DNA from: a virus
Length of the DNA: 64,000 nt
Strand: one strand, 5' to 3'
Virus record (IMG/VR): IMGVR_UViG_3300042090_000646
Coordinates: 1 to 64,000 of that record
Made by a program: the position numbers and the translations under genes. Positions 839 through 10,434 of the stretch are shown here, piece by piece (the stretch's first letter is position 1; each line of letters begins with the position of its first letter). Below the pieces are notes generated by a model, which was not told the origin of the DNA, ran no database searches, and saw only the letters and a program-made list of their open reading frames with translations.

Positions 839-1440
839 GAGGCCACCGCTTGGGTCCGGGGATCCGGCACTTCCTTGATGGCCCAGGCCGCAAGAGACGA
901 CGTCTTGACCCGCTTTCGCTCACCCAAGGCAAGAGACGCGGTATGGTTGGGAGTGATGATGCCGCGGTCAACGACCTCGATAAGGGCCATCTCGGCGGTC
1001 TGGTGAAGGACATGGCGGATCTGGCCGCTGGGGCCTTGGTAGAAGCCATCTTCGTGTATCAGGTGCAGCTTCATGGCGGCCTCCTCAAGCTTGGACTGTG
1101 TTCGTTCTGCCTTGGATGTGTTCTGCTGCTCGGCACATGCGCCGCACCGGCTAGCGAATCCGGTCGGGCTGGTAGTGCTGGGCTCGGCCTGGCGGCATCC
1201 GCAGATTTGACAGATGCCCAACTTCTTTAGGGCCGGGCGCAGCCTGGAGGCCGACTCATGCGTCCGTTTGGCTGCGATCCGGGCGCAGGCCACACACCGG
1301 CTTGCCAGCCCGGTTGGACTATTTTTGCTGGGCTTGGCCGGGTGCTTCCCGCAGACCTGGCACTTGCCCTTGCGCTTCCTGTCGGCCCGTTCTTTGGCCT
1401 TGCGCTTCCGGTCGAGGGCCCTTCTGGTTTGTGGGGCCAT
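835..1440 (-). CDS. Protein with two tandem Cys4 zinc-ribbon-like repeats
   Basis: CQVC..SPTGLASRCVAC and CQIC..SPTGFASRCGAC; GAGG RBS. Confidence 0.75.
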   Translation of the reverse strand: MAPQTRRALDRKRKAKERADRKRKGKCQVCGKHPAKPSKNSPTGLASRCVACARIAAKRTHESASRLRPALKKLGICQICGCRQAEPSTTSPTGFASRCGACAEQQNTSKAERTQSKLEEAAMKLHLIHEDGFYQGPSGQIRHVLHQTAEMALIEVVDRGIITPNHTASLALGERKRVKTSSLAAWAIKEVPDPRTQAVAS

Positions 1441-1442
1441 GG

Positions 1443-1688
1443 CTACCTCGCCAGGGGAATTTTTGGGTAGCCAAAGCCCAGCTCGGCCGCCTTCTTAGCG
1501 GTGTCCATGTCAGTGTAAGGGCCATGCACGGGAGGAGTGGTGTTGCGGTCGGGTGCCTCGCACATGAGGGACATCCAAGCTTTGCCGTGGGAATCCCAGA
1601 CATGGGCCAGGACCAGCCGGCCCTTCATGAGGTGCTGGCCGATGGATCCAGGAATGCCCATCCAGCTACTGGTCGTTGGCTTTGCCAT
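1443..1688 (-). CDS. Hypothetical protein
   Basis: GGAGG RBS; tight operon packing. Confidence 0.65.
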   Translation of the reverse strand: MAKPTTSSWMGIPGSIGQHLMKGRLVLAHVWDSHGKAWMSLMCEAPDRNTTPPVHGPYTDMDTAKKAAELGFGYPKIPLAR

Positions 1689-1860
1689 GGCTTGCCTCCT
1701 TATATGCCGAATGGTCCTTAACCGCCTTGTCGAGCTGCCTGTCGGACCAGATATTGAAAAGCATGAGGACGGCCAGGAGTGCGCCCAGGATCAGAAAGAT
1801 TTTTGCCCGGATGGCAGATATCTCGTCGTCGGTGAAGGGAGGAATCGCCTCGAAGCTCAT
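1666..1860 (-). CDS. Small membrane protein
   Basis: Start at MSFEAIPP (ATGA overlap); hydrophobic stretch IFLILGALLAVLMLFNIW. Confidence 0.6.
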   Translation of the reverse strand: MSFEAIPPFTDDEISAIRAKIFLILGALLAVLMLFNIWSDRQLDKAVKDHSAYKEASHGKANDQ

Positions 1861-2075
1861 GCTGCGGCATCCTTCCTGGCCAGCTCCTGGCGGATGGCCC
1901 TCCGCTTGGCCCAGTCTTCCAATTGGGCGAAGAGGATGATGTCCTGCATTCGCCCGGAAGTAACGCGGGGCATTCGGGGAACCCGGTGGGGGTGATGGAT
2001 CAGCTTCAGAATAATTGCGAGCATCTCGGCTCCGGAAATGGACGGGCCCCCGGAGGGGCCCGCGGTTGCGCTCAT
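1857..2075 (-). CDS. Hypothetical protein
   Basis: ATGA overlaps at both ends. Confidence 0.55.
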   Translation of the reverse strand: MSATAGPSGGPSISGAEMLAIILKLIHHPHRVPRMPRVTSGRMQDIILFAQLEDWAKRRAIRQELARKDAAA

Positions 2076-3133
2076 TGCCCCCTGGAGACGAGGGACGTCC
2101 ACTCGGAGCCCTGGAGGGCCATGATGTCTCCGCCCATACCCTGAAGCTCAATGGCGCGGTCGTAGGACGGGTGCGCGTTGGCGACCTGAGTCATCGCATT
2201 CGCCAGTCCCCATCTGGTATGGTCCCGCTCTCCCAGGTAGGAATACAGAACCGACTTCTTCTCGGCCTCCCGGAGCTGGAAGCGGCTGGCCACTTCCTCC
2301 ACCACGAGTCCAGGATCGCCGGGAACGGCGTCGTTGGCCTTCTCGCGGATGTCCTGGAGGATCTTCTTGAATCCTTCCTCACTGGTCAGGGTGTTCAGGT
2401 GGTCCCGCATTTCCAGCCAGAACGCCTGGTTCTTGGCTTGGATGGTCTCATCCTTCAGCACAGTGAAGGAGTCGTCGTTGCCAAGGAGACTTCCGCCAAG
2501 ATGGGCCCGCTTCTTCCCGTAGTCGAACCCCATCATGCCGTTGGTGCAGCGGAGCCGCTTAAGGAAAGGATCAATCTCGATCTTGCCAAGGCCGATCTCG
2601 GAATTTTTGATGATGAAGCCGCCCTGGATTACATCGCCCACCCGGATCTCGCCGGTCAGGGCCGGGGTGACCACCTGGACGTAGAGAGCCTTGTCCGTCA
2701 CGGTGGCCGACTCGATCTGGAACTGGGGCTGATCCAGGATGACCGGGAACAGATACTCGGCCACTTCCTCGTTCTCGTAGAGCCCGAAGCGGTTGGAGAG
2801 GATGGCTCTGGTGTGGCCATTGAGGGTCCGCACCAACCGCTTTTCGTTCTGGTGGTTGTCCAGGAGGCGGTTGACATTAACGGAGATAAGGTCCGGGGCG
2901 TTCTCCCGGAGCTTCTGCATGAACCCCCTGGGGATGCCCAGGTAGTCGGCGAGCTGATTCCTGGCATGGTCGCTAGGCTCGGTGACGACTGGGCCGGCGG
3001 CGTTCATCCAGGTCAGTTCCTGGTCCTCGGTCATGCGAAGGGTCGTGGCGGGGATGATGTAATCCCGCTTGTTCTTGGCGTTGTCCAGAATGGTCTGGAC
3101 GAGGGTAGGAATGGAGTCGCCTTTGATGGTCAT
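2072..3133 (-). CDS. DUF932-like phage/plasmid protein
   Basis: Motifs RLVRTL..RAILSNRF, NSEIGLG, RLRCTNGM, TRWGLANAMT resemble the DUF932 family. Confidence 0.8.
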   Translation of the reverse strand: MTIKGDSIPTLVQTILDNAKNKRDYIIPATTLRMTEDQELTWMNAAGPVVTEPSDHARNQLADYLGIPRGFMQKLRENAPDLISVNVNRLLDNHQNEKRLVRTLNGHTRAILSNRFGLYENEEVAEYLFPVILDQPQFQIESATVTDKALYVQVVTPALTGEIRVGDVIQGGFIIKNSEIGLGKIEIDPFLKRLRCTNGMMGFDYGKKRAHLGGSLLGNDDSFTVLKDETIQAKNQAFWLEMRDHLNTLTSEEGFKKILQDIREKANDAVPGDPGLVVEEVASRFQLREAEKKSVLYSYLGERDHTRWGLANAMTQVANAHPSYDRAIELQGMGGDIMALQGSEWTSLVSRGQ

Positions 3134-3143
3134 GTGGTGCCTT

Positions 3144-3416
3144 TCAGGCAGGGAGTTGCAGCTCCCGGTTGGGGTTGACGGCCTTGTTGATGCGCTCGTT
3201 GGCGCGGTGGGCCTTGTTGAGCATGGCGATGGCTTCGTTCAGGGCAGAGAGCTGGAGTCCACGAGGAATGTTCTCGCCTCGCTCCCAGCGCCCCGGTGTG
3301 GCGGGGGATACCCGGATAAGCCGGGCGAACGCCGCCTGACTCAATCGGGCGCCCTTGCGGACGGAGCGGATCTCTTGCGGGGTGGGCACTACCGGCCCGG
3401 AGTCAGTTCGTTCCAC
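3144..3416 (-). CDS. XRE/HTH_3 DNA-binding protein
   Basis: IRSVRKGARLSQAAFARLIRVSPATPGRWERGENIP. Confidence 0.8.
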   Translation of the reverse strand: MERTDSGPVVPTPQEIRSVRKGARLSQAAFARLIRVSPATPGRWERGENIPRGLQLSALNEAIAMLNKAHRANERINKAVNPNRELQLPA

Positions 3417-4509: not shown

Positions 4510-7500
4510 CTATGCCGCTTTGTTCTGCGCCGCCCTAGCGCGAATAGCTTTTAGATCCCCCGCTAATCCTGCATCATCCAGGTAGTCGGTGGGGTCCTGA
4601 AAAATCTCGCCCAAGACGCCCTTGTGCTTGACCCGCTCCATGTTGTTTTTTTCCCAGGGCGAGTCCGCCATGAGGGTGATACTCTCCACGTTGTCCTTCT
4701 GCCCCACCCGCCAGATCCGGGCCGTCCGTTGGTTGTGGCACATGGCGGTGGCGGGAAGGTCGTGATGGATCAGGCACTTTCCATGCTGGAGGTTCAGGCC
4801 GGTGGCCCCGGCGTCAGACATCACGATGACGTCTGCCTGGCCGCTGTTGAAGGCGGTCGCCTTCGCCGCCTTGTCCTTGGAGCTGTCCTTGCCAGTGAGG
4901 CTAGTGGCCTTGATCCCGGCCTTTTCCATGGCGGCCTGGATGGCTCTCACGGCCTGGAGGTTGTGGGAAAAGATCACGACGGGCTTGCCCTGGGCGATGC
5001 GCTCCTTGGCGATGCGGACATGTTCCGCCATCTTGCCGCCCTCCGGGTCCAGGTTGATGATCCGGTTCATGGCGGATTCCCGCATGGTGCCGACCGCCTT
5101 GCGGACCCTCTCGGCGATGGCGGCGTGGTCCGCCTCCGGCTTGCCCTCGAAACTCTTGGGCGCCAGGATCCGGGCCCACTTCAGGGCGTCGGGCGCCCCC
5201 GTCCGGAGTTTTCCGGAGGCCAGCTCAACCTGGTCGACGGCGGCCTTCTGCTTGTCGGTGAGCGGGACGTCGAGGTTGCTCTTGTAGCAGTCCTTTCCGG
5301 GGTCCACGCGCCCATTGAACCAGTAGCGGGACAGCTCCTGGGCCATGGACTTCTTGGCCAAAGGGGTGTTGTTCTTGAACCGGCGCAGGAACTCGTCCTT
5401 GGACTCGGGCGGGTAGCGGTGCGGGTCGATCTTGTTCAGGTTGGACCAGACCTCGGAGACATCGTTCTTGAGTGGGTCACCGGTGGCCATGGTGACGTAG
5501 TCCGAATTGTGGGAGTGGGCATCCATGACCTTGGACAGGACGCTGTCCACCTTCCCTTCCCTGTCCAGGGCGCCATGAGCCTCGTCCACCATGAGGGCGT
5601 TGAAGTCGATCCCGGCCTTGGTGAACGCCTCCTTTACGGCAGCGGCGGCCTCCTTCGGAGGGGTGTTCATGAGGAAGTCCCTGGCTCCCTCGGGCCCCTT
5701 CCCCAGGTGGTCGCCCAGGATCTGAAGGGTGTCATCCCGGAGGGTCTGATGGGTCACAACGATGGCGTGTTGGTCCGGGTCTCGGTATGCGGCCAGGCGC
5801 TGCTCGTAGGACTCGCCTGGACGTGCATGGACGTGGAAACCTGTGGACGGGTCCACGAACCGAATAGACTCCGCCCCGAATTGCCCCTGGACGACACTGG
5901 GGACCGCCAGGATGGCCTTCTTTAGCTTGCCGTCGTGGTGCAGGGTGGTCAGGGCGCCCAGCATGATTCCGGTCTTGCCGCTATTGTGATTGACCAAACC
6001 CTGCGCAATATATGTGTGGGAATCTGGAACGGTGATATCGAATACTACCTGGAATCCTGCACTTTCAACAGAAAGGACCGAGACCCATGCCAAAAGGCCG
6101 ACCATGCTCGAAGGTTCTGATTTCAGACGAGGAACTTCGTCGCCTCTATCACGATGTAGGGATGAGTTCGACCCAGATTGGACGGCTGTTTGATGTGGAT
6201 GGCTCAGTGATTCTTTACCACCTGAAGCGTCGTGGGATCCCTCGTCGTGAGCCTTCTGCATGTCTGGGCAAGTTGAATGGGTCCTGGAGGGGGGGGCGCA
6301 TTCTCGACAAGAACGGGTATGTCCTGCTCCATACCCCAAATCACCCCGATGCGAACTCTGGGGGGTATGTCCGGGAACATCGCCTTGTGATGGAGGAGAT
6401 TCTTGGCCGTCGCCTTGGGCCCCAAGAGGTTGTCCCTCATCGGGACGGAGACAAGCAGAACAATTCCCCTGAAAATCTGGAGATATATGGCAAAAACTCT
6501 GACCACCTTCGAGAGGAACTGATGGGACGCATCCCAGAATGGACCCCAGAAGGGCTTGCTCGAATCCGTCAGCATATCCCAGCTCCGATGGTATGGACGC
6601 CAGAGCGTCACGAAGCCGCCCGGCAACGAATGAGGGATCGGTGGGCGAAAGGGAAAATTCCTGGACGGGTATGGACGCCGGAGGAGCGAGAGAAACAGGC
6701 AGAGCGAACCCAGAAGCGGGCACGCAAACCGGATGGATCATTCGAGTGATCTGGTCCAGCGTTTCATCCCGGGTTGTATCGCCCCCTTCGGGGGCACCCA
6801 TGATCCTGGATCCACAGATGAGGTCGCCAGCGTGAACCCATCCTGTCACACCCAGGAATAGGTGGCGTGGGGTCACGAAGATTTCAGACCCGTTGCTGCA
6901 TCTGATCCGGAGCATCTCCTCGTATCCCTTGACGAATACGGGCGAGGCTTTCTGTGTGACGACCTGACCATCCTCAGCCATGGATGCAACGACGGGACGC
7001 TCCCCGCTCAACCACCAGTCAAAGAACGTCCTATCCTGCCCTGTGACCTCGCAATGGAGGCGGGTTCCGCCATAGACGCACCCGGCTCCGTAGAAGAGGC
7101 CCATGCGCTTGAGCTGGGTGATCGCCTTCACCGCCCGCTGCTGAGCGGCATACTTCCCGCTCATGTGGATGCCTTCGTCCACCTTCACGGTTCCCTTACG
7201 CCCGGCGAATGGAGCGGCGGCGGCGGGCATGAGGGAGCGGATCTGGTTCTCCAGGGCGGTTCCCAGGCCGGTGCGCTCCCCGACCTTGGCGGTCTGGAGC
7301 TGGCGTCCGGTGACGTGGTGGTAGTGGTCCGCGAACCCTTCGTTGAGCGTGCCCTTCATCTGTTCCTGGATCGCGCCGAGGGCGCCCTTGGTTCCCTGGT
7401 GGTCCTTCACGAACTGGTCCCAGGCGGTCGGCTTGTCGGCGCTCTCCTTATATTCGGCCTCCAGGGCGGCCCGCTGGGCGCTCCACTTCGTCCATTCCGG

Positions 7501-10434
7501 GCTGTCCCCGGCGTCCCCGTCCTCCGGGGCGATCCCGGCGCCGAGGTTGACCGTGGCAATCTCCGGGTCAATCTTGGGCGGCTCGGGGCCCAGCTTGGAC
7601 AGGGCGGCCTCGAACTTGGCCCGGTGGCTGTCGCCCTGCTGCTGGTGCCAGAAGTCCTTGAGCCCCTGGACGTGGCTATGGGTCAGCTCCCCGACCGGAA
7701 TGTAGGCGGCCTGGAGGCGGGGATCCTGGGCCAGGGCCCGGTGCATTGCCTCATGGAAATTGGGATCCTCTTGCACCCGCTGGCCCTGAAGGGTCTGCCC
7801 GGACTCCTCGGGGTTGGCCTTGAAATAGCCGTCCATCATGGGCGCCAGGTAACCGGCCAGGTCGTCGGCGTTGGCGGCAACTCCGTCCTTGTGCAGGGGG
7901 ACCAGCTCGGCCAGAACCTGGTGCAGGGCCTCCGGGTCGGCGACCTGAGTGGAATAGGCGCTGGCCACGATGTCCTCGGGTCTTTCCCCATCGGCGAGCC
8001 GGGCTCCCATCCAGGTCTTGAGCTTGACCTTCATGGCCTCGGGGCCGTCCCCGTCCTGTATGCCATGCTGCCGCTGGAACTCGGGCAGCTCCAGCTCGGG
8101 GTTGGAGTAGCGGTCGGCGAGCCGGTTGGCGAACCCCGGTGGAATCCAGTTCTCCTCATCCTGCTGGCCACCCTTGATGGACAGGGCCGCCTCCCGCTCG
8201 CCCAGGGCCGCGCAGTCGACCGGATGGATCAGCGCGTCCATGGCTTCGCCTTTGGCGGTCAGGATCGCCTCGCCGTCCTCATGCTCAATGGTGTAGCTGC
8301 CCTCGGGCATCCCCAGGGCGGCGGCGGTGAGGATGGCCTTCTCCGGGGTCATCCGGCCAAGGGGGATGCTCTGCTCGTTCCGGGGGGTGCCCTCGAGGGC
8401 GGCGATCAGGGCGGCGCGGGCTTCCAGGCGCCCCAGGGCGCCCCCCAGCATCCGCCGGGCCTCCTCTAGGGCGCCCACCTTGTTCTTCTGGATCTCGACG
8501 GCGGTGGGGAGGTCGTGGGCCACCTCCACCAACTCCTGGTCGTATTCGGCGGCCTTGGCGCGGAGGGCCTGGGCGTCCTCGGTTACCTTAGGCAATACCT
8601 CCTCCTGCTCCTTGAGATGGTGATGCTCCAGGGCCTCCAGGACCGCTTGCTGGTCCTCATGGCTGAAGTTCTGCCGGATGCCCCTGGCGACGATCTGCGC
8701 GGCGGCCTCCGGCCCCAGGCACTCGACCACGTCCCGGTCGATCAGGCCCTGTCCCAGGGCCGCCAGCCCAACATCGTGGAGGAGGTCGAAGGCCCCGGCC
8801 CCCCGGCTCTGGTGCATCCCTTCCAGTTCATTGCTTTTGAATGGGTCGATCTCGCTGTTCTCTGGCCACCGCTCGCCGACCTCCTCCAGGAATCCCCGGA
8901 CATGGTCGGTCAGGAGCTGTTCGTGGAGGGACTGGACCAGGGCCTCATGCTCGTCCGGGGTGGAGACTGCCATCTGGTAGCCGGGCTCGAAGGTGATCCC
9001 CTTGCGTTTGGCGAGCTGCTCCTTGTAGACGCCCCGGAGGGCCTGGCGGGCCTTCAGGATGCGGGCGTAGTCCTTGTTGGCATCCAGGGCGGCCTTGACC
9101 GCCTCCACGGCGGCGGCGGTCTTCTGCGCGGCCAGCTCCTTGGTCGCCTTGTGAACCTCCATGTTGGCTGCCAGGGCCTCCGGGGTCTGCCCGGCCTTGG
9201 CGCCCTTGGGCGCCTTTCCCAGGAGCGCCCGGACCTCATCCACCTTGGCCATAAGCTTCTCGGTGGTCATCCCGGCCTTGGCCGCCCGCTCCGCCAACTT
9301 CTGGTCATAGCCGGGGCCGCCCTTGGGACCGGCCTCGGCCAGGATCTGTTCCAGGTCCATGGGCGCGGAGGAGCCCACCACAGAGAGCCCTGCGGCACCC
9401 CTGGCCTCGGCGTCCAGCATGACCTTCTTCTCGACGTCGGCGGCGACCTTTTTGGCCTCCCGGAGGAGGGTCCGGTGCAGCTCGGCCTGGGCCTTCGGGT
9501 CCTCGGCCTGGCCGTCCTGGGCGGCCTCGGGGCCCAATGTCTCCTTGATGAAATCCTTCTCGGCCTTTCTGCGCTCCGCCCGGCCGCCCTCGGTGGCCTC
9601 CTTCTCCTTGGCCAGCTCGTCCGGGGTCAGGCTGGCCTTGCGCTTCATTTCTGCCTCGCGCCTCATCTTGGCGTTGGCCTTGGAAGTCTCCTTCCACTTA
9701 GCCGGGTCCAGCTTGTTGAGTCGGAGCCCGTTGAGCTTCCCTTTGGCCCCGCCGATCACCCGCGCAGTTCCATGGCTGCCGGGGATCATGTGGATCAGGA
9801 CCGGGGTGGCCTTGCCGTCGCCGTGGTGCATGGCGATCCAGTGGTCTCCCGGCTGGAGCGGGGGATGGTCTCCGCCCTTGGCGATGGTCCGGGTGGAATT
9901 CTCGTCGGAAAGCCATTCCTTGAATTCATCAATCGAGTGTTCGGCGATAGAGCCCAGCCCGCGCCAGCCCGGAGAGTAGTTGTCCAGGTAGCCACCGGCC
10001 GCCTCGGGCGCGGAGTCCCAGCCAAGCATGACCTTGTGCTCATCAAATTCGCCAGAAGTGGGGTCCACTTGGTTGACGATAAACACGCGGTCGCTAGCCG
10101 TATTGGGGCCGATGAAGACGTCCACCCCATCCCCGTCCGCCCCAATCCGGCGTTCGCAGAATCCGTAATGATTGACCATTCTTACGGACCATTTGGTCCC
10201 GTTTGGATCCACCCCGCTCCGGATACTCCCAGCGGGGTTCTCAATGGCAATGGGGATACCCTGAACGACCAGGTGCCCCCGTTTGCCGCCCTCCCATGGC
10301 TCGGCCTTGGCCGCCTGGGCGTCGATGTCCGGAGAGGTGAATGGCTTGGGCTTGATCTCCGGGAACCACCCCACCGGCATCATCCAGCCGGTCTCTCCGG
10401 TGTCCTGGTCGGTGAAGGCGATGCCGGTGGTCAT
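4510..10434 (-). CDS. Giant polyvalent protein: inorganic pyrophosphatase-like domain plus intein-interrupted SF2 (SNF2-like) helicase
   Basis: IENPAGSIRSG..HYG..GADGDGVDVFIG..FDEHKVMLG (PPase-like); Walker A YGAG/SGKT split by intein; DEAH; ATG motif III; QRTARIWRVGQ motif VI. Confidence 0.9.
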   Translation of the reverse strand: MTTGIAFTDQDTGETGWMMPVGWFPEIKPKPFTSPDIDAQAAKAEPWEGGKRGHLVVQGIPIAIENPAGSIRSGVDPNGTKWSVRMVNHYGFCERRIGADGDGVDVFIGPNTASDRVFIVNQVDPTSGEFDEHKVMLGWDSAPEAAGGYLDNYSPGWRGLGSIAEHSIDEFKEWLSDENSTRTIAKGGDHPPLQPGDHWIAMHHGDGKATPVLIHMIPGSHGTARVIGGAKGKLNGLRLNKLDPAKWKETSKANAKMRREAEMKRKASLTPDELAKEKEATEGGRAERRKAEKDFIKETLGPEAAQDGQAEDPKAQAELHRTLLREAKKVAADVEKKVMLDAEARGAAGLSVVGSSAPMDLEQILAEAGPKGGPGYDQKLAERAAKAGMTTEKLMAKVDEVRALLGKAPKGAKAGQTPEALAANMEVHKATKELAAQKTAAAVEAVKAALDANKDYARILKARQALRGVYKEQLAKRKGITFEPGYQMAVSTPDEHEALVQSLHEQLLTDHVRGFLEEVGERWPENSEIDPFKSNELEGMHQSRGAGAFDLLHDVGLAALGQGLIDRDVVECLGPEAAAQIVARGIRQNFSHEDQQAVLEALEHHHLKEQEEVLPKVTEDAQALRAKAAEYDQELVEVAHDLPTAVEIQKNKVGALEEARRMLGGALGRLEARAALIAALEGTPRNEQSIPLGRMTPEKAILTAAALGMPEGSYTIEHEDGEAILTAKGEAMDALIHPVDCAALGEREAALSIKGGQQDEENWIPPGFANRLADRYSNPELELPEFQRQHGIQDGDGPEAMKVKLKTWMGARLADGERPEDIVASAYSTQVADPEALHQVLAELVPLHKDGVAANADDLAGYLAPMMDGYFKANPEESGQTLQGQRVQEDPNFHEAMHRALAQDPRLQAAYIPVGELTHSHVQGLKDFWHQQQGDSHRAKFEAALSKLGPEPPKIDPEIATVNLGAGIAPEDGDAGDSPEWTKWSAQRAALEAEYKESADKPTAWDQFVKDHQGTKGALGAIQEQMKGTLNEGFADHYHHVTGRQLQTAKVGERTGLGTALENQIRSLMPAAAAPFAGRKGTVKVDEGIHMSGKYAAQQRAVKAITQLKRMGLFYGAGCVYGGTRLHCEVTGQDRTFFDWWLSGERPVVASMAEDGQVVTQKASPVFVKGYEEMLRIRCSNGSEIFVTPRHLFLGVTGWVHAGDLICGSRIMGAPEGGDTTRDETLDQITRMIHPVCVPASGFALPVSLAPPASIPVQEFSLSPTDPSFVAGRLRDALASIPSELGYADGFEQALLGSILGCVPSVPLEGGQSFCHISPDFQGNCSACLRPDEGQPLGAQGDGQESPPSQGDVPGHTPQSSHRGDLGYGAGHTRSCRECAPPSRTHSTCPDMQKAHDEGSHDASGGKESLSHPHQTAVQSGSNSSLHRDRGDEVPRLKSEPSSMVGLLAWVSVLSVESAGFQVVFDITVPDSHTYIAQGLVNHNSGKTGIMLGALTTLHHDGKLKKAILAVPSVVQGQFGAESIRFVDPSTGFHVHARPGESYEQRLAAYRDPDQHAIVVTHQTLRDDTLQILGDHLGKGPEGARDFLMNTPPKEAAAAVKEAFTKAGIDFNALMVDEAHGALDREGKVDSVLSKVMDAHSHNSDYVTMATGDPLKNDVSEVWSNLNKIDPHRYPPESKDEFLRRFKNNTPLAKKSMAQELSRYWFNGRVDPGKDCYKSNLDVPLTDKQKAAVDQVELASGKLRTGAPDALKWARILAPKSFEGKPEADHAAIAERVRKAVGTMRESAMNRIINLDPEGGKMAEHVRIAKERIAQGKPVVIFSHNLQAVRAIQAAMEKAGIKATSLTGKDSSKDKAAKATAFNSGQADVIVMSDAGATGLNLQHGKCLIHHDLPATAMCHNQRTARIWRVGQKDNVESITLMADSPWEKNNMERVKHKGVLGEIFQDPTDYLDDAGLAGDLKAIRARAAQNKAA
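5983..7080 (-). mobile_element. Intein (366 aa) in helicase Walker A
   Basis: Cys1 (CVYGGT), block B TPRH, block F VFDITV, terminal HN then Ser+1; removal restores GAGSGKT. Confidence 0.93.
6087..6749 (+). CDS. HNH homing-endonuclease-like protein, antisense and nested in the intein
   Basis: AAGGA RBS; N-terminal HTH (MSSTQIGRLFDVDGSVILYHL); GYV..HP..GYVREHRLVMEEILGR..EVVPHRDGDKQNNSPENL; three WTPE repeats. Confidence 0.9.
   Translation: MPKGRPCSKVLISDEELRRLYHDVGMSSTQIGRLFDVDGSVILYHLKRRGIPRREPSACLGKLNGSWRGGRILDKNGYVLLHTPNHPDANSGGYVREHRLVMEEILGRRLGPQEVVPHRDGDKQNNSPENLEIYGKNSDHLREELMGRIPEWTPEGLARIRQHIPAPMVWTPERHEAARQRMRDRWAKGKIPGRVWTPEEREKQAERTQKRARKPDGSFE

Follow-up and report, generated by a model that had tools for sequence, protein, structure and literature searches.

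Organization of the locus

The DNA analysed here, a stretch of 64,000 nucleotides referred to as the window, derives from the IMG/VR virus record IMGVR_UViG_3300042090_000646, which comprises 78.5 kb and is about 56% complete. It carries on the minus strand a gene for a helicase precursor that is interrupted by an intein, and on the plus strand, over the same bases as the middle of that intein, a second gene encoding a protein with a helix-turn-helix (HTH) module and an HNH nuclease core. The features of the locus, with the supporting evidence in brackets, are as follows. Structural models were built with AlphaFold2 (AF2), and their confidence is given by the pLDDT score, short for predicted local distance difference test.

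4510..10434, minus strand: precursor gene, 1974 amino acids (aa), with an N-terminal inorganic-pyrophosphatase-like (InPase) domain, a long helical middle, and an intein-split SNF2-like helicase (open reading frame (ORF) list, Pfam)
7081..10434, minus strand: N-extein, aa 1-1118, C-terminal end ...LFYGAG (junction mapping; intein-free homologues run ...LFYGAGSGKT...)
5983..7080, minus strand: class-1 intein, 366 aa, precursor residues 1119-1484 (Cys1, block B, block F/G, +1 Ser)
6766..7080, minus strand: N-terminal splicing lobe, intein aa 1-105 (AF2 pLDDT 78-98 over aa 1-100; conserved in 27 related inteins)
6091..6765, minus strand: intein-frame linker, or filler, aa 106-330 (antisense read-through of the HNH gene; pLDDT about 35-66)
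5983..6090, minus strand: C-terminal splicing lobe, aa 331-366 (pLDDT 92-97; 22 of its last residues near-identical in the related protein P0097)
4510..5982, minus strand: C-extein, SGKT (the remainder of Walker A) followed by the SNF2/Helicase_C core and the stop codon (85% identical to P0097)
6087..6749, plus strand: putative HTH-HNH_3 homing-endonuclease gene encoding 220 aa, ATG and TGA of its own (Pfam HNH_3, 96 homologues, fold)
6072..6077, plus strand: Shine-Dalgarno (SD)-like AAAGGA, 9 nt 5' of the HNH ATG (sequence; antisense to the intein codons V-L-S)
6126..6230, plus strand: HTH DNA-binding module, HNH protein aa 14-48 (weak Pfam HTH_38 and HTH_20 matches; three model helices; HTH fold matches at Z 4-5)
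6291..6530, plus strand: nuclease core of the HNH (beta-beta-alpha-metal) kind, aa 69-148 (corresponding to residues 30-105 of I-HmuI in the structural alignment)
6435..6437, plus strand: codon CCT for Pro117 (all 85 relatives compared have His (81) or Asp (4) at this position)

The precursor matched the Pfam families InPase (E 1.5e-46), SNF2-rel_dom, Helicase_C (E 2.3e-13), and Intein_splicing. The helicase Walker A motif is divided as GAG/SGKT, with Cys1 directly after ...LFYGAG and the intein end ...VNHN directly before SGKT. Block B of the intein reads T70-P-R-H73 and block F/G reads VFDITVPDSHTYIAQGLVNHN (block F as VFDITVP...VNHN), so that the N-terminal Cys nucleophile, TxxH, block F Asp, C-terminal His-Asn, and +1 Ser of a class-1 intein are all present, and 27 related inteins all share C1, H73, D348, and N366. 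The Intein_splicing match was above the family cut-off (E 5e-11, 43 bits against 35.8), and since profile positions 29-155 were stretched over residues 36-366, the intein must hold a large insertion. The model of the two lobes (aa 1-100 and 331-366, pLDDT 78-98) matched the Mtu RecA, Ssp DnaB, and Npu DnaB mini-inteins in Foldseek (E 6e-8 to 4e-7, prob 1.00), and this mini-intein core looks competent for splicing. A preliminary description, made from the letters of the window, had already proposed that a complete intein splits the Walker A motif, and the boundaries that it gave proved exact. This intein is the only one in the whole record. Its region has a GC fraction of 0.56 versus 0.64 for the host gene, as would be expected for an immigrant.

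The gene on the opposite strand

The plus-strand gene overlaps intein residues 111-332, the slot in which an in-frame endonuclease domain normally sits, and its start codon and ribosome-binding region lie opposite the C-terminal splicing lobe. Its product matched HNH_3 above the cut-off (E 4e-8, 33.2 bits against 24.8) and HTH families weakly. Together with the AAAGGA motif and the start and stop codons listed above, this match bears out the preliminary description, in which the gene had been read as an HTH-HNH gene with a ribosome-binding site, ATG, and stop of its own. The collection of proteins searched held 96 homologues, with identities of up to 82%.

An AF2 model of the HNH frame, built with an alignment of 46 homologues, had a mean pLDDT of 89.4. 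With a structural aligner, the best solved match of the nuclease core was I-HmuI (1u3e; Z 7.0, root-mean-square deviation 2.7 A, 73 residues, 26% identity), the next nuclease being I-PpoI at Z 4.2; Foldseek returned I-HmuI at E 0.14 (prob 0.97). A PDB sequence search with the HNH profile or core gave HTH proteins or chance matches only and no residue-level alignment to I-HmuI. The residues E97, H98, H118, N126, N130, and H140, listed as the invariant core, are intact in the window; H118, N126, and N130 are invariant in 86 sequences, and N137 and H140, which are conserved among the HNH proteins encoded within inteins in this way, are likewise retained.

Overlap phase and selection on the two frames

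Codon position 1 of the HNH gene lies opposite codon position 1 of the intein. The spurious antisense ORFs found elsewhere in the precursor gene (4624.., 6862.., 8515..), in contrast, all occupy the codon-aligned mirror frame, and the offset between the two that the preliminary description had pointed out is therefore real. The intein frame is free of stops across the whole HNH gene, while the other two antisense frames contain 3 and 7. We estimated how often this would happen by chance by holding the HNH protein fixed, resampling its synonymous codons, and counting stops in the intein frame. Trials without any stop made up 0.08% with the codon usage of the gene itself, 0.085% when its own codons were permuted, and 0.6% with extein usage; 4-5 stops were expected and none was observed. 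Homologues with stops in the intein frame, on whose absence the preliminary description had staked its reading, did not turn up: 41 unique related viral loci contained 0 such stops, against 2.3-11.9 expected (mean 6.7).

The two frames differ in the selection that they record. Over 12 pairs of related loci, the ratio of nonsynonymous to synonymous substitution rates (dN/dS) in the HNH frame was 0.09-0.37 in the 9 pairs for which it was finite, dS being saturated in the other 3, whereas all 12 pairs gave a ratio of 0.84-4.4 for those bases in the frame of the intein. For the window itself, the per-frame comparison was made with L165 (JBGAST010000089.1), a locus more distant than the closest relatives of the HNH protein (P0001-P0006). 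In the HNH frame, the two share 57% aa identity with a ratio of nonsynonymous to synonymous differences per site (pN/pS) of 0.39, and the differences fall 69/63/135 over codon positions 1, 2, and 3. In the intein frame, the same bases give 26% aa identity and a pN/pS of 1.5; identity within this pair is 59-64% in the exteins and 48-59% in the splicing lobes. As HNH codons, the overlapping bases are under purifying selection; as intein codons, they evolve neutrally and are merely kept free of stops, which is the pattern predicted for the two frames beforehand.

In the intein-frame model, the approximately 225 residues between the lobes had a pLDDT of about 40, and on this low confidence together with a dN/dS at or above approximately 1 we rejected the idea that the filler is a functional domain. 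The preliminary description had called it motif-free. It is indeed disordered and neutral, but it carries conserved motifs cast by the other strand: the peptide SPPSQGDVPGH (intein aa 228-240; window 6363-6398) is the antisense shadow of YVREHRLVMEE in the HNH protein. Similar strings were seen in the linkers of related inteins, in which P230 is invariant (27 inteins); the corresponding string reads HSPSRVGAHGHT in P0101 and VSVPSQDGAQAHT in P0126. Such a shadow of the HNH core could serve as a protein-level marker for inteins with an antisense HNH gene.

A family of nested loci

The nested layout, in which a long antisense ORF runs across an HNH gene, recurs widely. The best 80 loci found in viral contigs were taken as a viral set, and such an ORF was present in 46 of them. 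One of these, L048, proved spurious and was excluded, its ORF being of low complexity, AT-rich, in a different phase, and devoid of intein motifs; the remaining 45 all show the codon phase of the window. A metagenome scan gave 58 nested loci, again all in the same phase (58/58). As the two sets overlap and some metagenome loci duplicate viral ones, the total amounts to approximately 100. In each of the 45 viral loci, the intein is inserted in a P-loop, at either of two sites, x/SGKT as in the window or GK/T. The hosts of the nested inteins are mostly large terminase subunits. The other P-loop hosts encountered were an SbcC-like ATPase (L042), a Strawberry-notch-like AAA_34 helicase (L090), an AAA_25 ATPase (L148), a DNA helicase (L022), and another giant SNF2 protein (L096). 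This range of hosts suggests that the inteins may have switched host genes repeatedly through the shared sequence GxxGxGK[ST].

Two cultured phages carry the same layout. In Pectobacterium phage Ymer (L081, OP748252), it lies at 1098-3362, where the annotation gives a 754-aa terminase-like coding sequence (CDS) as hypothetical and omits the antisense HNH ORF of 232 aa. In Pseudoalteromonas phage PHS3 (L082, KX912252), it lies at 1161-3287; there the HNH gene is annotated and the 708-aa frame across it is open, but the terminase is annotated as two CDS, a 'large subunit' and a 'small subunit', around the HNH gene. From the literature alone, Campylobacter phage vB_CcoM-IBB_35 (PMC3322345) might hold a further candidate, a nested-HNH intein described as two elements.

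In a tree of 86 HNH proteins, all the nested ones fall on one side of a single branch (Shimodaira-Hasegawa-like approximate likelihood ratio test (SH-aLRT) value 84, a moderate support), so that one change of state is needed, the tree carrying no rooted test. The GK/T-site subgroup forms a starred group of its own, and the non-nested relatives lie outside the nested group. The likely history that this topology points to is that a free-standing HNH gene was captured once, in an ancestor, with spread among P-loops thereafter. The preliminary description had envisaged that a free-standing HNH gene invaded a mini-intein backwards; the position of the non-nested relatives fits such an invasion, although the event would be ancestral to the family and did not take place at this locus.

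Related helicases with and without the intein

The closest counterpart of the window lies on a 3.4-kb ENA contig that encodes both P0097 and the HNH protein P0001, the latter 82% identical to that of the window. P0097 begins within the C-terminal splicing lobe and continues into the C-extein. It was the sole match when the intein with short flanks was searched among proteins of similar length, gene calls on short contigs omitting the read-through frame. L165 lies on a contig binned with a Holophagaceae metagenome-assembled genome (MAG) and encodes the same helicase (52% identity over 947 aa), with a 365-aa intein at the site used in the window and, on the opposite strand, the HNH gene compared above. 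The closest organism-labelled relatives, L165 and P0115, are both on contigs binned with Holophagaceae or Acidobacteria MAGs, which hints that the host of this phage group is acidobacterial.

A search with the helicase half also recovered many helicases without an intein, among them P0099 (84% identical), P0100 (78%), P0102 and P0103 (73-74%), and P0104 (66%). These five read through the site as an uninterrupted G-A/P-G-S-G-K-T/S, with GAGSGKT in P0099. In a tree of 102 C-exteins, the minimum number of gains or losses needed to explain the 8 that bear an intein at this site was 7, and shuffled labels did no worse. The sharpest contrast was provided by P0126 (1886 aa) and P0139 (1517 aa), whose N-exteins are 100% identical over 1023 aa and whose C-exteins are 99.6% identical, the difference between them being exactly a 369-aa intein. 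Such a near-identical pair points to probable mobility of the element in the very recent past, whether the cause was homing or a precise loss.

Two further helicases, P0148 and P0174, were found to have a different intein with a LAGLIDADG_3 domain and the end ...THN/T, placed at the neighbouring GK/T site. Two unrelated inteins consequently target the same Walker A motif within one helicase family.

RNA-library contigs and the intron alternative

Contigs identical to window positions 5000-8000 were present in two wetland metatranscriptome libraries, one of which contained 90% of the sampled words. The phage may have been active in the sampled wetland, with the reservation that DNA carry-over is possible and that coverage in an RNA library is no proof of transcription. 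One contig from the RNA libraries, which like all such contigs shows no strand, runs unbroken over 6039-7913 and so across the junction between intein and N-extein. No joint that skips the intein was seen in the contigs of four runs, and no Rfam family was matched at E up to 1 over 5500-7600. A group I or group II intron was rejected on the Rfam result and the unbroken contig, the latter of which fits removal at the protein level rather than at the RNA level.

Proposed mechanism and alternative explanations

With the anatomy, the selection on both frames, the membership of a family, and the sporadic distribution alongside intein-free alleles demonstrated, we consider the locus very probably to be a composite selfish element that consists of a class-1 intein and a homing-endonuclease gene on the opposite strand. 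The helicase precursor would be translated from the minus strand; the Hint lobes (intein aa 1-105 and 331-366) would then fold together, with the read-through of about 225 residues looping out as a disordered linker, and protein splicing would excise all 366 residues and join GAG to SGKT, restoring the Walker A motif of the helicase. The 220-aa protein with its HTH and I-HmuI-like HNH modules would be made separately from the plus strand with its own start codon. In a mixed infection, it would cut or nick an intein-free helicase allele near the GAG/SGKT codons, and recombinational repair would subsequently copy the intein and the nuclease gene together. Selection would hold the protein sequence of the nuclease and, by way of the nuclease synonymous sites, would also hold the intein frame free of stops.

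The lineage to which the element would belong is old and probably single, comprising inteins that target P-loops and share one phase for their antisense HNH gene. On balance, we lean towards the broader view that the antisense nuclease, rather than being a rare accident, is a fixed design of one old P-loop-homing intein lineage that has kept moving between unrelated ATPases (terminases, SNF2 and other helicases, SbcC-like proteins, AAA_25) in environmental phages, and apparently undescribed for the HNH type. If this is true, the phase that sets position 1 opposite position 1 would let the synonymous sites of the nuclease absorb all of the stop avoidance, and convergent transcription could couple the expression of the nuclease to that of the host gene.

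Several points weigh against the composite element as formulated above. Splicing is presumed from the motifs and from the need of the helicase for an intact Walker A motif. Separate expression of the HNH protein from the plus strand is likewise presumed; a promoter scan detected no sigma-70-like promoter 5' of the HNH gene, although the promoter type of the host may differ, and SD-like motifs preceded the HNH starts in 12 of 36 related loci, the start calls being crude. The cleavage target of the nuclease is a presumed one. For P0126, the member of the near-identical pair that bears an intein, an antisense HNH gene is suggested solely by the shadow motif in the protein linker. Finally, the HNH motif of the window reads VVPHRDGDKQNN, with a Pro117 that is unique in 86 sequences, and the window nuclease may accordingly be weakened, recently inactivated, or dead, in which case this copy would no longer be homing.

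This last point leads to the alternative that survives best, namely a decaying element in which the intein still splices, as the helicase needs it to, while a His117Pro substitution has recently killed the nuclease and left the locus in an immobile stage of the homing cycle. HNH_3 or I-HmuI-like enzymes have His or Asp directly before the catalytic His, and the 86 sequences comprise 81 with His, 4 with Asp, and the window alone with Pro; P0001, the closest relative, retains His-His. We take the position to be that of a metal ligand by analogy with Asp74 beside the catalytic His75 of I-HmuI, an equivalence assumed without a residue-by-residue alignment. The overlap did not impose the proline: codons for His or Asp at this place would leave the intein frame without a stop. 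The codon-117 base is identical in contigs of a DNA run, possibly from the source sample, and of a metatranscriptome library; no variant at the codon was seen in the contigs of four runs, which cannot reveal rare alleles. On the other side, all other conserved residues are intact, the HNH ORF contains neither a frameshift nor a stop, and some beta-beta-alpha-metal nucleases tolerate the loss of one ligand. It is quite possible, though we would stop short of calling it probable, that decay has set in; our own judgement is that this particular copy is fairly probably still active. In either case, Pro117 leaves the identity of the element unchanged.

It is improbable that the HNH protein is something other than the homing enzyme of the intein, either a free-standing endonuclease that uses the intein as a safe harbour and cuts elsewhere, or an accessory of DNA packaging. 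The packaging variant draws on terminase-adjacent HNH genes that are known to aid cos cleavage (Kala et al., 2014, as cited in PMC10694778) and on the fact that most family members lie within terminase genes. However, the same HNH group is nested in helicases and in SbcC-like, AAA_34, AAA_25, and SNF2 hosts, which a packaging role leaves unexplained, and the nested HNH protein can be argued to be a homing enzyme rather than a packaging accessory precisely because the host in the window is a helicase. Against both variants stand the confinement of the nested HNH proteins to one side of one branch, always in P-loop inteins and in one phase, the divergence of intein and HNH gene in step with the extein, and the fact that presence and absence differ by a whole intein at once.

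We regard as highly improbable a fractured gene with a split intein, in which two polypeptides would be joined by trans-splicing and the endonuclease gene would stand free between them. Gene callers do divide these loci in just this manner, as P0097, which starts within the C-terminal lobe, and the two-piece annotation of the PHS3 terminase illustrate; but such splits are choices of annotation over an unbroken sequence, and the intein frame runs on without a stop in the window as well as in each of the 41 unique loci, far beyond what chance would allow. Lastly, although GC-rich genes here do yield long spurious antisense ORFs (e.g., 535 and 645 aa), an artefact, whether an in-frame HNH intein inverted during assembly or an antisense ORF open by chance, is extremely unlikely. 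The HNH frame is not the mirror frame of those ORFs; its product matches Pfam above the cut-off, is modelled with a confident fold, and has 96 homologues. The layout recurs in approximately 100 independent contigs and two complete cultured-phage genomes, and no differences were seen where contigs from other libraries cross the junctions, which speaks against the inversion that the preliminary description had allowed for.

Returning to the composite element, its wider significance would be to show that an intein may be maintained over long periods alongside a homing nuclease of its own, the two being separate genes that share their bases on opposite strands. Such long-term persistence supports an origin of mobile inteins in which splicing came first and the nuclease invaded later. 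The overlap is also a clean natural case of double coding, one frame being selected as protein and the other solely for the absence of stops. In practical terms, gene callers routinely break the host genes or miss the nuclease, leaving terminases and helicases mis-annotated in phage and metagenome records.

Comparison with known systems

The preliminary description had supposed the architecture to be undescribed. This does not hold for the general design, since antisense endonucleases in inteins were reported in 1998, 2002, and 2025; what appears undescribed is the HNH type. The earlier cases are antisense endonuclease genes in the Synechocystis DnaX intein and the Chloroflexus SpoVR-like intein (Gorbalenya, 1998; Gogarten, 2002; both as cited in bioRxiv 10.1101/2025.01.02.630785). 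The citing preprint (Gosselin et al., 2025) itself reports antisense genes of the LAGLIDADG or VSR-like type in inteins of actinobacteriophages. It likewise proposes that a free-standing endonuclease invaded, and it lists HNH as an in-frame domain only. A LAGLIDADG ORF overlapping in the +2 frame, with the same per-frame pattern of selection, has been described for cyanobacterial dnaX inteins (bioRxiv 10.64898/2026.09.14.751524). We found no description of an antisense HNH gene inside an intein in the literature, subscription journals being largely beyond the reach of the search.

The element in the window resembles these antisense or out-of-frame endonuclease inteins in having an ORF between the splicing blocks but outside the intein frame, an open frame across it, and a disordered loop. 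In both, furthermore, the endonuclease frame is under purifying selection, the invasion of a mini-intein has been proposed, and the spread is sporadic with signs of continuing transfer. It differs in its nuclease, which is HTH plus HNH_3 (I-HmuI-like) in the window and LAGLIDADG or VSR-like in theirs, and in its family, which is large, confined to one phase, and spread over several families of P-loop ATPases, whereas theirs comprises a handful. Because the nuclease is HNH_3 rather than LAGLIDADG or VSR-like, the element constitutes a new variant of antisense-endonuclease inteins that lies outside the described sets.

With the canonical in-frame HNH inteins (Dalgaard et al., 1997; actinobacteriophages), it shares a nuclease of the HNH superfamily and the slot between blocks B and F; but their nuclease is a domain of the intein, while that of the window is a separate protein encoded on the opposite strand and leaves the intein polypeptide nuclease-free. 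The ShiLan element in a mycobacteriophage methylase (PMC11855218) is an out-of-frame HNH insertion that is actively homing and for which translation of the HNH ORF is an open question. Both it and the window have a hidden HNH ORF over a stop-free host frame, but that of ShiLan is on the same strand and lacks a splicing domain, whereas that of the window is antisense and inside a complete intein predicted to be able to excise the read-through peptide. In fractured genes with split inteins (Dassa et al., 2009, PMC2677866), a free-standing endonuclease gene, GIY-YIG or VSR-like, likewise lies between the N and C parts of an intein, an arrangement proposed as an evolutionary intermediate; unlike these genes, the window has a continuous frame and a contiguous intein. 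I-HmuI (1u3e), the HNH nicking endonuclease of Bacillus phage SPO1, is similar in its HNH_3-type motif and separate DNA-binding modules, but resides in a group I intron, whereas the window protein has an N-terminal HTH module and a Pro beside the catalytic His. To these systems the window adds a helicase host in whose family the element recurs, alleles that lack the intein, with a near-identical pair among them, and a copy whose active site is a variant one.

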